Positions 61 through 56,513 of a stretch of 64,000 bases of DNA are shown one piece after another (positions within the stretch are counted from its first letter, which is position 1; each line of letters opens with the position of its first letter). The translations under genes and the position numbers were made by a program. Source of the stretch: Escherichia phage EO1; the sequence record OQ223305.1; one strand, given 5' to 3'. The notes under the pieces are model-generated. The model was not told where the DNA came from. It saw only the letters and a program-made list of their open reading frames with translations, and did no database searches.

Positions 61-125
61 AGTTGTTTACAAGACTGTTCCTCTGTGGTACTATACAACT
101 ATCAACTACGGAGGAACAGAAAATG
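61..125 (+). repeat. 65-bp promoter cassette, copy 1 (copy 2 at 52673-52737)
   Basis: 60 of 65 positions identical between the copies; all 5 differences lie in one 8-bp block of the -10 region. Confidence 0.8.
65..96 (+). promoter_or_regulatory. early promoter cassette (-35 GTTTAC, -10 region GGTACTATAC) flanked by inverted repeat
   Basis: GTTTAC at 65-70; -10 region 87-96; inverted repeat CTGTTCCTC (75-83) / GAGGAACAG (111-119) brackets it. Confidence 0.65.
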
Positions 126-25701: not shown

Positions 25702-25783
25702 CATACAAGTAATATAAATCTATACTTATGAAAAACAGATGATTCTGGACATTTAGAATTCCCTAAAAAATTTTCACAAAACT

Positions 25784-25815
25784 GTTTACAAGAATGTTCT
25801 TCCATGGTACTATAC
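25784..25815 (+). promoter_or_regulatory. early promoter cassette with conserved 32-bp core
   Basis: GTTTAC 25784-25789; core GGTACTATACAACTATCAACTACTGATACGGA at 25806-25837. Confidence 0.65.
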
Positions 25816-25850
25816 AACTATCAACTACTGATACGGATTTGGATAATAAA

Positions 25851-26087
25851 ATGAAAATTGTTATGGGTTGCTTAGCAGTTTGTTTAGTTGCATTAGCAGC
25901 AGTTCCATTTGTTAGTGTTGAAAATGATACTCAACCTGTGATTGAATCTAGCACTGTTATTCACACTAATGGTAAAATATCAGTTAAAATTGATGATAAT
26001 CTTCATGTGAATACAAATGGATCTTTAGGTGTGCAAATGGGTAATACCTGCATAAGCACTACTGGAGTAATTACTACTTGCATTTGA
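25851..26087 (+). CDS. hypothetical secreted small protein (78 aa)
   Basis: ATG 25851 after promoter core and GGAT; N-terminal signal-like segment MKIVMGCLAVCLVALAAVPFVSV. Confidence 0.45.
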   Translation: MKIVMGCLAVCLVALAAVPFVSVENDTQPVIESSTVIHTNGKISVKIDDNLHVNTNGSLGVQMGNTCISTTGVITTCI

Positions 26088-26097
26088 GGAAATTATT

Positions 26098-26478
26098 ATG
26101 AAAATCGCTATTTTGGTTATTGCATTAGGTCTTACTGGTTGTGTGGCTCAAGGACCGGTAGTAAATCAGTCTGATGCAGGAAAAATTGTAAACTGTTCAA
26201 GCAAGTTTTATAATCCTAATGTCAAGTGTTATAAAGAAGCTCCAAAGCAAACAGTCGAACAAATGCAGGCGAATTTTGACGAAGCTATTCGTCCAGATGA
26301 ATCTGCTCAAGCATATCGTAATTCGGATGTAATTACACGCGAAGAAAAAATTGAAAACTACTGCGCCGAGCTTTGGGCAAATTGGGCTAATAATTACCAA
26401 TGGCGTACCGGTAAAAATGCTCCGATGGAGTATGTAGTGAATTCTTATAATTCATGCGTAAAAAATTTGACTAAGTGA
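26098..26478 (+). CDS. hypothetical lipoprotein (126 aa)
   Basis: Signal peptide with lipobox-like LTGC (MKIAILVIALGLTGCVAQG); adjacent to imm. Confidence 0.5.
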   Translation: MKIAILVIALGLTGCVAQGPVVNQSDAGKIVNCSSKFYNPNVKCYKEAPKQTVEQMQANFDEAIRPDESAQAYRNSDVITREEKIENYCAELWANWANNYQWRTGKNAPMEYVVNSYNSCVKNLTK

Positions 26479-30075: not shown

Positions 30076-31503
30076 GTGGTAGAAATTATTCTTTCTCATC
30101 TCATATTTGATCAAGCTTATTTTTCAAAAGTTTGGCCATATATGGATTCAGAATATTTTGAAAGTGGTCCAGCTAAAAATACATTCAAATTAATTAAATC
30201 TCATGTTAATGAGTACCATAGCGTTCCATCTATTAATGCGTTAAATGTTGCATTAGAAAATAGTTCATTTACTGAAACAGAATATTCTGGTGTAAAAACA
30301 CTTATTTCAAAACTGGCTGATTCTCCAGAAGACCACAGCTGGTTAGTAAAAGAAACAGAAAAATATGTTCAGCAAAGGGCGATGTTTAACGCCACATCTA
30401 AAATAATTGAAATTCAAACTAATGCTGAGCTTCCTCCAGAAAAACGAAATAAGAAAATGCCAGATGTTGGTGCTATTCCTGACATCATGCGACAAGCATT
30501 ATCAATTTCATTTGATAGTTATGTTGGTCATGATTGGATGGATGACTACGAAGCACGTTGGCTATCTTATATGAATAAAGCTCGTAAGGTTCCATTTAGA
30601 CTCAAAATTCTAAATAAAATTACTAAAGGCGGAGCTGAGACTGGAACACTGAACGTTTTAATGGCTGGCGTTAACGTTGGTAAATCATTAGGACTTTGTT
30701 CATTAGCAGCAGATTATTTGCAGCTTGGTCATAACGTTCTTTATATCTCCATGGAAATGGCAGAAGAAGTCTGTGCTAAACGTATTGATGCTAATATGCT
30801 CGATGTTTCTCTTGATGACATTGATGATGGACATATTTCTTATGCCGAGTATAAAGGAAAAATGGAAAAATGGCGTGAGAAATCTACTCTCGGTCGTTTA
30901 ATCGTTAAACAGTACCCTACTGGTGGAGCAGACGCTAATACATTCAGGTCTCTCTTGAATGAATTGAAGCTCAAAAAGAATTTTGTTCCAACAATCATTA
31001 TTGTCGACTATCTAGGTATTTGTAAATCTTGCCGCATTAGAGTTTACTCAGAAAATAGTTACACAACTGTTAAAGCCATTGCAGAGGAATTGCGTGCTCT
31101 TGCTGTTGAAACCGAAACTGTTCTTTGGACTGCAGCACAGGTTGGTAAGCAAGCTTGGGATTCTTCTGATGTTAACATGAGCGATATTGCAGAATCTGCC
31201 GGTCTTCCAGCAACAGCCGATTTTATGCTTGCGGTCATTGAAACCGAGGAGTTAGCAGCTGCTGAACAACAACTAATTAAGCAAATCAAATCACGATATG
31301 GTGATAAGAATAAATGGAATAAGTTTTTGATGGGTGTTCAAAAGGGAAATCAGAAATGGGTAGAAATTGAACAAGATTCTACTCCAACTGAAGTGAGTGA
31401 AGTAGCAGGTTCACAACAGATTCAGGCTGAACAGAATCGCTATCAAAGAAATGAATCTACTCGAGCTCAGTTAGATGCTTTGGCAAATGAATTAAAATTT
31501 TAG
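30076..31503 (+). CDS. 41: replicative DNA helicase gp41 (DnaB-like), 475 aa
   Basis: 475 aa, GTG start; Walker A GVNVGKS; matches T4 gp41 as recalled. Confidence 0.9.
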   Translation: MVEIILSHLIFDQAYFSKVWPYMDSEYFESGPAKNTFKLIKSHVNEYHSVPSINALNVALENSSFTETEYSGVKTLISKLADSPEDHSWLVKETEKYVQQRAMFNATSKIIEIQTNAELPPEKRNKKMPDVGAIPDIMRQALSISFDSYVGHDWMDDYEARWLSYMNKARKVPFRLKILNKITKGGAETGTLNVLMAGVNVGKSLGLCSLAADYLQLGHNVLYISMEMAEEVCAKRIDANMLDVSLDDIDDGHISYAEYKGKMEKWREKSTLGRLIVKQYPTGGADANTFRSLLNELKLKKNFVPTIIIVDYLGICKSCRIRVYSENSYTTVKAIAEELRALAVETETVLWTAAQVGKQAWDSSDVNMSDIAESAGLPATADFMLAVIETEELAAAEQQLIKQIKSRYGDKNKWNKFLMGVQKGNQKWVEIEQDSTPTEVSEVAGSQQIQAEQNRYQRNESTRAQLDALANELKF

Positions 31504-42715: not shown

Positions 42716-42745
42716 GTTTACTTCCTCGGTTAGTTGTGGTATTAT
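42716..42745 (+). promoter_or_regulatory. early promoter (GTTTAC ... GTGGTATTAT)
   Basis: GTTTAC 42716-42721, TATTAT 42740-42745. Confidence 0.6.
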
Positions 42746-42772
42746 AACACCATAGCTACTGAGGATAATAAA

Positions 42773-43273
42773 ATGAAAATTTATCGTGTTGAATCATCGT
42801 TTAGTATTCTTGATTATGAAGATGCTATAACAATACGTCGAAATCTTTGTGTTCAAATAACGCCGTACAGGAGTATAATAGATTCATGGAGCGAAGAGTG
42901 GCTATTACACGTAGGTTATGACAGACCTAATTTTATGCATCATAGCGATAATAATAAAAGAATTCCTTTACCACACGAAGATAAACTATTAGTTAAAAAC
43001 GCTAATATAGTAATTAATACTAAGTTCAAGAAAGATTATGTTGGAGTAGAATATCATATTCCAGGATGGTTTATAGCTCTTTATCATTTTGCTTTCGCTA
43101 GTGAGTATGATATGATGAGATGGTTCACACGAGAAGAGCGGGAAGAATTATCTTCTAAAGGATTTTATCTCGCTGTATACGAAGTTCCTGAAGATGAAGT
43201 TATCATTGGTGGGCACCAAGTAATGTTCCGCAAATCGCATGCTGAACTCGTAGATTTTATTGAAATGAGATAA
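42773..43273 (+). CDS. hypothetical early protein (166 aa), motB-region
   Basis: ATG 42773 behind an early promoter (42716-42745); the six-frame start at 42734 lies in the promoter. Confidence 0.45.
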   Translation: MKIYRVESSFSILDYEDAITIRRNLCVQITPYRSIIDSWSEEWLLHVGYDRPNFMHHSDNNKRIPLPHEDKLLVKNANIVINTKFKKDYVGVEYHIPGWFIALYHFAFASEYDMMRWFTREEREELSSKGFYLAVYEVPEDEVIIGGHQVMFRKSHAELVDFIEMR

Positions 43274-43818: not shown

Positions 43819-43853
43819 GTTTACAAACTCTTGGGACCAGAGTATAATGGTCC
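43819..43853 (+). promoter_or_regulatory. early promoter with TATAAT in a stem-loop
   Basis: GTTTAC 43819-43824; TATAAT 43843-43848 bracketed by inverted repeat GGACCA (43834-43839) / TGGTCC (43848-43853). Confidence 0.65.
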
Positions 43854-43892
43854 TGTGGAGTATAAAATCTTTTTAACAAGTGAGAGATAACT

Positions 43893-44390
43893 ATGATTAT
43901 TAATATTGGTGAAATTGCTCGTGTATCTGATAAATCCCGTTCTAAAGCAGCAGGAAAATTGGTCGAAATTGTAAGCATTCAGCTTAAACACGGCGTTAAA
44001 GATGAAGATTCTGAAGTAAAAGTGCGTATCATTCCTAAAGATGGAAAGTCTAAACCTCAGTTTGGTTATGTTCGATGGAAATTTCTTGAGCCTGCGTTTT
44101 TGAAAGCTGTTCCCGCTAAAGGAATTGAAACGATTGATACTTCGCATGTAGGTGTAGACTTTAAGTGGAAACTCGGTCAGGCTATTAAGTTCGTTGCTCC
44201 TTATGAATTCGAATTTACTGAAGATGAGGAAGGGGTTGTTCAAAAACACCGTACTCGCGCTATGTGTGCATACATTACTGATCAATGGGTAGAAGACGGT
44301 GTTAAGCTGTACAACGCGGTATTTTTAGGAACATACAAAGTCATTCCTGAAAGTTGGATTAAACACTACAGCAAAGCTCGCTGTGCATAA
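43893..44390 (+). CDS. hypothetical protein (165 aa), paralog B
   Basis: C-terminal region MCAYITDQWVEDGVKLYNAVFLGTYKVIP resembles the previous ORF; own promoter at 43819-43848. Confidence 0.45.
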   Translation: MIINIGEIARVSDKSRSKAAGKLVEIVSIQLKHGVKDEDSEVKVRIIPKDGKSKPQFGYVRWKFLEPAFLKAVPAKGIETIDTSHVGVDFKWKLGQAIKFVAPYEFEFTEDEEGVVQKHRTRAMCAYITDQWVEDGVKLYNAVFLGTYKVIPESWIKHYSKARCA

Positions 44391-44424
44391 AGTTTAAATT
44401 TTTTTTTTTCATAAAACTATATAC

Positions 44425-44467
44425 ATCAGTAGTTGATTATGGTACTATATCAATATCAACTACTGAT
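44425..44467 (+). promoter_or_regulatory. promoter-like stem-loop element: 13-bp perfect inverted repeat bracketing a -10 region
   Basis: ATCAGTAGTTGAT (44425-44437) and ATCAACTACTGAT (44455-44467) flank TATGGTACTATAT; variant of the 32-bp core; no GTTTAC -35. Confidence 0.5.
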
Positions 44468-52397: not shown

Positions 52398-52451
52398 GTT
52401 TACATACCACAAGGACCGTGGTACTATACAACTATCAACTACTGATACAGA
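52398..52451 (+). promoter_or_regulatory. chimeric early promoter cassette
   Basis: GTTTAC 52398-52403, CCACAAGGACCGTGG 52407-52421 (second cassette type) fused to the 32-bp core at 52420-52451. Confidence 0.6.
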
Positions 52452-52570
52452 TTTGGAGAATAAAATGAAAATCGCTGAGATTGAACTATGAGTTCATTAT
52501 GGTGGTGTTTTGTTTGGTTAATTAGTATTCCAGTAATTTGTTTAACATTTACTTTTGTGATGAGGTTATT

Positions 52571-52669
52571 ATGAAAATTTTGAATTCTGTACTTATTGCT
52601 TGTGCGTGGTGGGTTGCGCAAGTTTCAGCAGTAGTAGTTGGTATTCACATTTATTACGAATATTTTTAA
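52571..52669 (+). CDS. hypothetical hydrophobic peptide (32 aa)
   Basis: ATG after GAGG; single hydrophobic helix. Confidence 0.25.
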   Translation: MKILNSVLIACAWWVAQVSAVVVGIHIYYEYF

Positions 52670-52672
52670 AAA

Positions 52673-52737
52673 AGTTGTTTACAAGACTGTTCCTCTGTGG
52701 TATTATTACCCTATCAACTACGGAGGAACAGAAAATG
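52673..52737 (+). repeat. 65-bp promoter cassette, copy 2
   Basis: AGTTGTTTACAAGACTGTTCCTCTGTGGTA[TTATTACC]CTATCAACTACGGAGGAACAGAAAATG, versus CTATACAA in copy 1. Confidence 0.8.
52677..52731 (+). promoter_or_regulatory. early promoter cassette, duplicate of the 61-125 element
   Basis: GTTTAC 52677-52682; inverted repeat CTGTTCCTC (52687-52695) / GAGGAACAG (52723-52731); -10 block GGTATTATTACC. Confidence 0.65.
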
Positions 52738-52848
52738 AAAAAGATTGTTAAAGCTATATGGAATGTAGTTATAATACTAGTAGTTTTGAGTATATTCCCA
52801 ATCGTTTTAATGATTGATGTATTAAACGTTTACTTTGGATTTATGTGA
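52735..52848 (+). CDS. hypothetical hydrophobic peptide (37 aa)
   Basis: ATG 52735 after GGAGG, behind a duplicated promoter cassette; hydrophobic. Confidence 0.35.
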   Translation: MKKIVKAIWNVVIILVVLSIFPIVLMIDVLNVYFGFM

Positions 52849-55806: not shown

Positions 55807-55860
55807 GTTTACAACCAAAGCATACTGTGGTACTATACAACTATCAACTACTGATACAGA
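55807..55860 (+). promoter_or_regulatory. early promoter of motA with conserved 32-bp core
   Basis: GTTTAC 55807-55812; core GGTACTATACAACTATCAACTACTGATACAGA at 55829-55860. Confidence 0.65.
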
Positions 55861-55877
55861 ATTACGGAGATTAGAAA

Positions 55878-56513
55878 ATGTCTAAAGTAACTTACATCAT
55901 CAAAGCTTCTAACGATGTTCTGAATGAAAAAACTGCTGCGATTTTAATTACTATTGCTAAGAAAGATTTCATTACAGCCGCAGAAGTTCGTGAGGTGCAT
56001 CCAGATTTAGGTAACGCAGTAGTTAATAGTAATATTGGGGTATTGATTAAAAAAGGCCTGGTGGAGAAATCTGGTGATGGATTAATCATTACTGGTGAAG
56101 CTCAGGATATTATTTCAAATGCAGCAACTTTATATGCACAGGAAAATGCTCCGGAACTGCTGAAAAAACGAGCAACTCGTAAAGCTCGCGAGATTACTTC
56201 CGATATGGAAGAAGATAAAGACCTCATGTTAAAACTTTTAGATGAAAATGGATTTGTTCTTAAAAAGGTTGAAACTTATCGTAGTAATTATCTTGCTATT
56301 TTAGAAAAACGCACTTACGGAATTCGCAATTTTGAAATTAACAACAATGGAAACATGCGAATTTTTGGATACAAAATGATGGAACATCATATTCAGAAAT
56401 TTACTGATATCGGAATGTCTTGTAAAATCGCTAAAAACGGTAATGTGTATCTTGACATTAAACGTTCGGCAGAAAACATTGAAGCAGTAATCACTGTAGC
56501 ATCTGAACTGTGA
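55878..56513 (+). CDS. motA: middle-transcription activator MotA (211 aa)
   Basis: 211 aa; MSKVTYIIKASNDVLNEKTAAILITIAKKDFITAAEVREVHPDLGNAV matches T4 MotA as recalled. Confidence 0.85.
   Translation: MSKVTYIIKASNDVLNEKTAAILITIAKKDFITAAEVREVHPDLGNAVVNSNIGVLIKKGLVEKSGDGLIITGEAQDIISNAATLYAQENAPELLKKRATRKAREITSDMEEDKDLMLKLLDENGFVLKKVETYRSNYLAILEKRTYGIRNFEINNNGNMRIFGYKMMEHHIQKFTDIGMSCKIAKNGNVYLDIKRSAENIEAVITVASEL

Follow-up and report, generated by a model that had tools for sequence, protein, structure and literature searches.

Paralogous early-promoter cassettes before nrdC.8 and ndd.4 of a T4-like phage, with a proposed Shine-Dalgarno mask on read-through RNA

Early promoters of phage T4 are described as combining an UP element, a -35 GTTTAC, a TGn motif and a -10 element (Hinton, 2010; PMC2988021). 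In T4-type genomes, such promoters also occur within promoter-early-stem-loop (PeSL) cassettes, which fill the interval between a stop codon and the next ATG and consist of A/T-rich upstream sequence, a TTTACW-N17-TAYWAT promoter, a stem-loop overlapping the -10 element, and a Shine-Dalgarno (SD) sequence followed by the ATG (Arbiol et al., 2010, PMC2839356; Comeau et al., 2014, PMC4122927). In the PeSLs of RB49 and phi1, the stem commonly overlaps the -10 (PMC2839356), and the ndd.4/.5 region is the example presented in Fig. 6A of the paper comparing PST and T4 (PMC4122927).

Hairpins also act on translation in T4, where the genes e, soc, 49 and I-TevI are established cases of a promoter lying inside a hairpin that masks the SD (Uzan and Miller, 2010; PMC3014915). 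Early SDs are, in addition, targets of RegB, which cleaves moderately at the GGAG of nrdC.8 and efficiently at the GGAU of motB.2 in T4 in vivo and is easily blocked by RNA structure (Durand et al., 2006; PMC1702504). The two cassettes described here, found in a 64,000-nucleotide stretch of Escherichia phage EO1 (OQ223305.1; hereafter the window), have features of all of these systems.

The cassette pair and its promoters

The window belongs to Tequatrovirus: it has an identity of about 97% with T4-like phages, RB51 and PE37 among them, and its first 6 kb shares 95-98% identity with hundreds of Tequatrovirus genomes. Its plus strand corresponds to the T4 minus strand and thus to the direction of early transcription; both cassettes, their elements and the ORFs that they head lie on this strand. 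Cassette A (61-127), 97% identical to T4 at 53.9 kb, extends from the nrdC.9 stop codon (TAG, 60-62) to the nrdC.8 ATG at 123 plus 2 nt, and makes up the entire nrdC.9|nrdC.8 intergenic region in the RB51 and T4 annotation. Cassette B (52673-52739) runs from just past the ndd.5 stop (TAA, 52667-52669) to the ndd.4 ATG at 52735 plus 2 nt and is likewise the whole ndd.5|ndd.4 intergenic region, within the rIIB-denB-ndd-ac region. T4 itself has both. The initial annotation had described the downstream ORFs as unrelated, and this is so: NrdC.8 (123-650, 175 aa) and Ndd.4 (52735-52848, 37 aa, a predicted membrane peptide) produce no alignment and fall into separate PHROG families, both of unknown function.

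The annotated identity of 60/65 between 61-125 and 52673-52737, 52.6 kb apart, is reproduced by direct reading and by an alignment script, and becomes 62/67 when the alignment is extended to ATGAA (61-127 vs 52673-52739). The only mismatches are at 91 (C/T) and 95-98 (ACAA/TACC). The identity ends sharply, on the left at the stop codon that precedes the cassette and on the right just past the ATG.

Three observations concern the surroundings of the pair in relatives. In T4, a C-to-T change within the stem (ACTATGG; T4 166749-166764) has generated an upstream ATG, at which the annotated ndd.4 begins; in the window (52720-52737) and in most relatives this ATG is missing and the start is the SD-preceded ATG 15 nt downstream, so the T4 annotation of ndd.4 is probably five codons too long. 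The distance between the cassettes is 52.6 kb here (123 to 52735) and about 56.0 kb in T4 (53885 to 166749), from which it follows that the window is without some 3.4 kb of T4 sequence between them. In RB51, a seg-like homing endonuclease gene lies between nrdC.10 and nrdC.9 (458-1177 of locus L001), just upstream of cassette A, with none there in T4.

Promoter scans return TTTACA-17-TACTAT with an upstream TG at 66-94 in A, and TTTACA-17-TATTAT with TG at 52678-52706 in B. The -35 element of A occupies 65-71, reading GTTTAC (65-70) in T4 notation and TTTACA (66-71) in the sigma-70 register, and is followed by an extended -10 at 86-94 (TGg TACTAT), which would place +1 near A101. The promoter of B (52677-52706) has GTTTAC(A), with the hexamer at 52677-52682, a 17-bp spacer and TGg TATTAT, and its predicted start is near 52713. 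The A+T content upstream is 0.76 for A and 0.88 for B. As predicted from these elements, TTTACA, 17 bp, TGn and TAYTAT, both copies are T4-type early promoters. They hold every element of the published consensus and point in the early direction, but unlike T4 early promoters in general (PMC2988021), they are identical to each other across the normally variable spacer and leader. For the defining activity of such promoters, transcription by unmodified host RNA polymerase right after infection with a start about 7 nt past the -10, the support is indirect: a -10 and leader module identical to that of the motA early promoter, and the detection of RegB-cut nrdC.8 RNA in T4 (PMC1702504).

The inverted repeat CTGTTCCTC...GAGGAACAG lies at 75-83/111-119 in A and at 52687-52695/52723-52731 in B; this pattern has two matches in the window and none in 100 shuffles, and the cassette halves are likewise confined to these sites and absent from shuffled sequence. 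The annotated elements, GTTTAC, a 9-bp repeat, SD and ATG, are thus all in place, and the repeat extends into a 15-bp RNA stem. In A, the stem pairs 75-89 with 105-119, including G.U pairs 84.110 and 87.107, and encloses a loop of 15 nt; in B, folding pairs 52687-52701 with 52717-52731. Cassette A folds with a dG of -26.2 kcal/mol (z -5.9 vs shuffles) and B with -23.2 kcal/mol (z -4.2), and the spacer/leader duplexes alone score z values of -6.4 and -6.6, respectively. The 5' arm is promoter spacer and the 3' arm is leader containing the SD GGAGGA (110-115 in A, which is also the RegB GGAG site; 52722-52727 in B), while the loop holds the predicted +1 and all but the first base of the -10 hexamer. 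Folding and promoter scan together bear out the earlier description of a repeat that brackets the -10 and carries the SD in its downstream arm. The description of the five substitutions as one block at the -10 needs amending: they are confined to 91 and 95-98 and all fall in the loop, yet only one is in the -10 hexamer, at its position 3, and four are in the discriminator downstream.

No U tract follows either stem, and a terminator scan found no terminator-like site at A or B; given the missing U tract, an intrinsic terminator was set aside as lacking support in the sequence. A search of Rfam gave no matches for A and, for B, only matches far below the gathering score.

Cassette edges and the PeSL comparison

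By structure, A and B are PeSLs as published, and neither the type of element nor, in essence, these particular examples are new. Each fills a stop-to-ATG interval (TAG 60-62 to ATG 123; TAA 52667-52669 to ATG 52735), has a TTTACW-N17-TAYWAT promoter below A/T-rich sequence, and forms a stable stem-loop with a 15-bp stem (-26 and -23 kcal/mol), so the PeSL structure proposed in the initial annotation fits point by point (PMC2839356, PMC4122927). As in published PeSLs, the copies are multiple, lie in hyperplastic early regions and bear evidence of recombination with one another, here in the form of shared haplotypes, shared variants and chimeric cassettes. The differences are that the stem of A and B has no U tract and a 3' arm that is the SD itself, that recombination takes the form of copy-to-copy conversion with no ORF changes at the edges, and that the stem is built around the -10, whereas in the PST/T4 comparison the stem-loops are just upstream of the promoter (PMC4122927).

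ORF gain, loss or replacement at the cassette edges was not seen for A in four genera or for B within Tequatrovirus. The nrdC.9|nrdC.8 junction is intact in all Tequatrovirus, Mosigvirus-like, Dhakavirus and Gaprivervirus loci examined. T4, PST, G9062 and ECP52 are collinear through cassette B, as are 490 of the 627 records that match the B region (at least 80% query coverage), with no breakpoint at its edges within Tequatrovirus; between genera, the sole difference in content at B is the missing ndd.5 upstream in Dhakavirus and Gaprivervirus. The proposal that the cassettes are module junctions is thus not upheld, and the comparison of flanking ORFs with other T-even genomes, in which the edges of A and B miss the synteny breakpoints, largely refutes it for these two copies.

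Two other members of the family, promoters E and C, do adjoin indels. Promoter E (52398-52467, plus strand) precedes ndd.6 and lies 280 bp before B, and directly after its ATG, about 200 bp upstream of B, there is a hot spot (52459-52470) with frequent indels of about +210, +235 and +446 bp; these correspond to the presence or absence of PST ORF268/269 or of a 264-nt ORF (G9062, Lutter) and have ATGAAA microhomology at the joints. PST, G9062, Lutter and most Tequatroviruses carry the 264-nt gene (for example, at 1468-1731 of locus L003, in L150, and at 856-1119 of L153), which is deleted in the window and T4, between two ATGAAA repeats. An 8-codon ORF after promoter E (MKIAEIEL, 52465-52491), which overlaps the ndd.6 ATG, looks like a remnant of this gene (PST ORF268).

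These data bear on the classical account of PeSLs, in which the stem-loop is mainly a terminator or attenuator of upstream transcription and the cassette a portable recombination site that moves ORFs between genomes. Its precedents are direct: terminator activity was reported for one RB49 stem-loop, together with mini-circles formed between neighbouring PeSLs (PMC2839356), and the published Fig. 6A concerns ndd.4/.5 itself (PMC4122927). The recombination of cassettes with each other, the extra ORF, missing from T4, that is headed by the chimeric promoter C, and the clustering of indels beside E also speak for it. For A and B, however, the terminator scan is empty, no U tract follows the stem and the SD itself makes up the 3' arm; synteny is unbroken at A in four genera and at B in Tequatrovirus; and the nearby indels are joined at ATGAAA microhomology and not cassette to cassette. 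A reciprocal crossover between A and B would, moreover, be expected to delete 52 kb including essential genes. We consider this account unlikely for the two copies studied here.

Pairing of the arms and a proposed SD mask

Changes inside the stem preserve it. Among Tequatroviruses, the internal changes affect four pairs (C-G to U.G, U.G to C-G, G-C to G.U, and U-A to U.G), and all of them keep pairing; breaks are limited to the two outer pairs and the loop-adjacent pair. Natural variants with broken pairs are the outer 2 bp of T4 copy A, G88A in RB51, and those of JS98 and ST0. The nrdC.8 and ndd.4 cassettes of Dhakavirus and Gaprivervirus, and in Mosigvirus a locus adjoining dmd, have a different pair of arms, CATCTCCAGTRG/CTACTGGAGRTG, which forms a stem of the same geometry, with the spacer paired to the leader and SD. 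Two pairs in this second family show compensatory double changes, AU<->UA and GC<->UA, among 11 related sequences; this covariation was reached by none of 500 shuffles, and 81% of cells in the alignment are paired, compared to 25-56% in slid registers. The covariation suggests selection on the stem, and, coming from a small sample of related sequences, is supportive rather than conclusive. Pairing is not uniformly of this kind: the Mosigvirus-like nrdC.8 cassette (loci L010/L013) forms no more than a 7-bp hairpin around the -10, in which the SD is not clearly included, and the hairpins at 31503 and at site F (44419) in the window do not mask an SD.

Partition-function folding predicts a strong dependence of SD accessibility on the transcript. 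In read-through RNA, the probability that the SD is unpaired is 0.00; for transcripts that start at the internal promoter it rises to 0.34-0.93 (cassette A) and 0.13-0.83 (cassette B), the SD of the latter being still partly paired in the ensemble. The prediction thus has the SD sequestered in long transcripts and open in those initiated within the cassette. Read-through into the cassettes is plausible: no terminator separates B from promoter E, 280 bp before it, and in RB51 the 1.5 kb preceding A contain no terminator-like site.

The reading that we favor, with a probability of roughly 0.6, is that A and B are paralogous immediate-early PeSL promoters of a strong UP/-35/TGn/-10 type, each set in a 15-bp SD-masking hairpin that gates read-through transcripts, and are kept alike by conversion. 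Read-through RNA would carry both arms, fold, and hide the SD/GGAG from ribosomes and RegB alike. RNA from the internal promoter would start in the loop and be devoid of the 5' arm, because this arm lies upstream of the -10; its SD would be open, allowing translation and, subsequently, inactivation by RegB. The gene would thus be expressed only from its own immediate-early promoter, and the cassette would be an early-promoter version of the hairpins at e, soc, 49 and I-TevI. As in those systems, the long transcripts hold both arms with the SD hidden, and internal-promoter RNA is without the 5' arm; in contrast to them, the internal promoter is early sigma-70 and not late or middle (PMC3014915), so gating would confine expression to the first minutes and not postpone it.

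Our confidence in the SD-gating mechanism itself is moderate, owing to the 7-bp Mosigvirus-like stem and to the window stems that leave the SD outside; it is also not obvious why a gene already fed by an early promoter 280 bp upstream would need such a gate. Translational coupling through a terminating ribosome was considered separately and rejected, as the upstream stops are 13-18 nt before the 5' arm, which, judging from the size of the ribosome footprint, is too far for the pairs of the SD to be opened. A literature search for nrdC.8 and ndd.4 returned only an unrelated mention, and a paper on DksA contains nothing on these genes.

The same structure could serve mainly as a shield, protecting intergenic GGAG motifs of long transcripts from RegB so that the downstream genes survive, with SD hiding a by-product. 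RegB cuts GGAG in early SDs and is blocked by structure, which implies that the stem should indeed shield read-through RNA; nrdC.8 and motB.2 are both cut in T4 (PMC1702504), and the cassette of motB masks a GGAG other than the motB SD. A and B resemble the mapped RegB sites in having GGAG(G) within an early SD. They differ in that the site is base-paired in read-through RNA and that its 3' context, AACAGA, departs from the A-rich consensus, making GGAGGAACAGA of A and B a poor match to GGAGRAYARAA. A change of sequence would presumably also be a cheaper means of avoiding RegB than a 15-bp stem. Protection as the main function seems to us improbable, more so than the terminator and ORF-moving role discussed above.

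Alternatively, the repeat may act at the DNA level, as an operator or cruciform around the -10 for a protein that shuts off early promoters. The repeat does overlie the core promoter, and the shut-off mechanism is said to be incompletely understood (PMC3014915), but the arms differ completely among promoters and genera while complementarity persists, and hence offer no common recognition sequence. Loop length is not constant either: it is 15 nt in the Tequatrovirus cassettes, and those of Dhakavirus and Gaprivervirus range between some 17 nt (PSD2001 ndd.4) and some 23 nt (QL01 nrdC.8). The G.T positions, and transitions that keep only G.U pairing, suit RNA and not duplex DNA; the G.U pairs of A and B would be A.C mismatches on the other strand, which favors a structure in the sense RNA. 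We regard a DNA-level role as very improbable.

Related promoters and exchange between loci

A BLAST search of the window with the cassette identifies four further sites carrying the -10 and leader module GGTACTATACAACTATCAACTAC, at 25783, 52418, 55825 and 44440. The loop of A belongs to this common module and that of B to a different haplotype. The module of A (83-109) is identical in 27/27 positions to 55825-55851, the copy of the annotated T4 motA early promoter, here called promoter D (55807-55880, plus strand), and 25 nt of it are shared with promoter E, in the match at 52418. The match at 44440 belongs to site F (44419-44467), in the region upstream of cef, which has a weak -35 (ATATAC). 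Its -10 lies between the arms of a perfect 13-bp repeat, ATCAGTAGTTGAT/ATCAACTACTGAT (-20.2 kcal/mol, z -5.1), whose 3' arm is the conserved leader and not the SD.

The fourth site, half-cassette C (25783-25853, plus strand), is the T4 imm.1 promoter. Its 5' half, including the arm, is A/B-like, and its 3' half is of the E/D type (GGAT/GAATAAAATG); in T4, the C arm is CTGTTCTTCC, identical to the arm of T4 B. Since its 3' half is of the E type, C forms no stem. Judged from these halves, C is a natural chimera of the cassette family with its junction in the shared core. A 78-aa ORF of unknown function (25851-26087, MKIVMGCLAV..., phrog_4189) lies between promoter C and imm.1 (ATG at 26098) in the window and is absent from T4, where the same promoter directly heads imm.1; ATGAAAAT and the SD region are common to the joints of this ORF, with no further promoter cassette at that place.

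Spacer/leader complementarity with z below -3.5 is found in five of about 20 plus-strand early promoters of the window: A, B, motB.2, motB and 31503. In the motB.2 early promoter (42716-42775, plus strand), the spacer arm pairs with a leader arm containing the SD (GAGGAU), which is thereby masked in a hairpin of -32.5 kcal/mol for 100 nt. The motB early promoter (43819-43895) also has a spacer arm complementary to its leader (-25.9 kcal/mol for 100 nt); what it masks is a GGAG that is not motB's own SD.

The two loci share polymorphisms across phages. A B-type loop precedes nrdC.8 in Yersinia phage ZN18 (loci L012/L029) and in at least nine records (at least 99% identity over 140 nt), and an A-type loop precedes ndd.4 in phage Lutter, in locus L028 and in at least 28 records. 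The variant G119C is present at both loci. Within Dhakavirus, the nrdC.8 cassette of JS98 and the ndd.4 cassette of VR5 begin with the same 43 nt, which leaves a U.C mismatch in the stem of JS98. T4's own copies differ at 9/61 positions, as against 5 in the window. For metagenomes, the pattern GTTTACA-N22-32-CTATCAACTA proved loose, the matches listed being mostly due to chance with a few useful T4-like loci, and IMG/VR yielded only 8, 14 and 6 loci when searched with the NrdC.8 protein and by pattern.

On the evidence of these shared variants, A and B appear to exchange sequence, in the pattern expected from short-tract ectopic conversion among early-promoter cassettes. Such recombination would maintain their near-identity, the 5-base block being a transferable loop haplotype common to other promoters; copy-to-copy conversion accounts for one linked block as the sole difference between A and B. 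Convergence on an optimal strong promoter, without shared ancestry or exchange, could draw on the unusually long consensus of T4 early promoters (PMC2988021) but is the least probable reading of all, since the spacer and leader are identical far beyond that consensus where the other early promoters of the window differ, and since linked multi-base haplotypes and single variants are common to both loci in different phages, which rejects chance or convergent similarity.

A broader proposition would take in the counterparts of the pair. A subset of T4 immediate-early promoters, comprising nrdC.8, ndd.4, motB.2 and the Dhakavirus, Gaprivervirus and Mosigvirus counterparts, may have a spacer that is the antisense of the promoter's own leader and SD, so that translation and RegB sensitivity are set by the promoter used; compensatory change would preserve the arrangement between genera of the Tevenvirinae, and gene conversion would do so between loci of one genome. 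We hold this tentatively, at slightly worse than even odds.

As found, the pair carries limited weight: two orthologues of T4's own early-promoter/PeSL cassettes have been re-identified. What is added is that A and B do not show the published shuffling of ORFs, and instead point to copy-to-copy conversion, or concerted evolution, and that their stem is, with moderate confidence, better understood as masking the SD/RegB site at the RNA level in read-through transcripts. If true, this would extend the logic of e, soc, 49 and I-TevI to early genes and would provide a simple rule that separates immediate-early from read-through expression.
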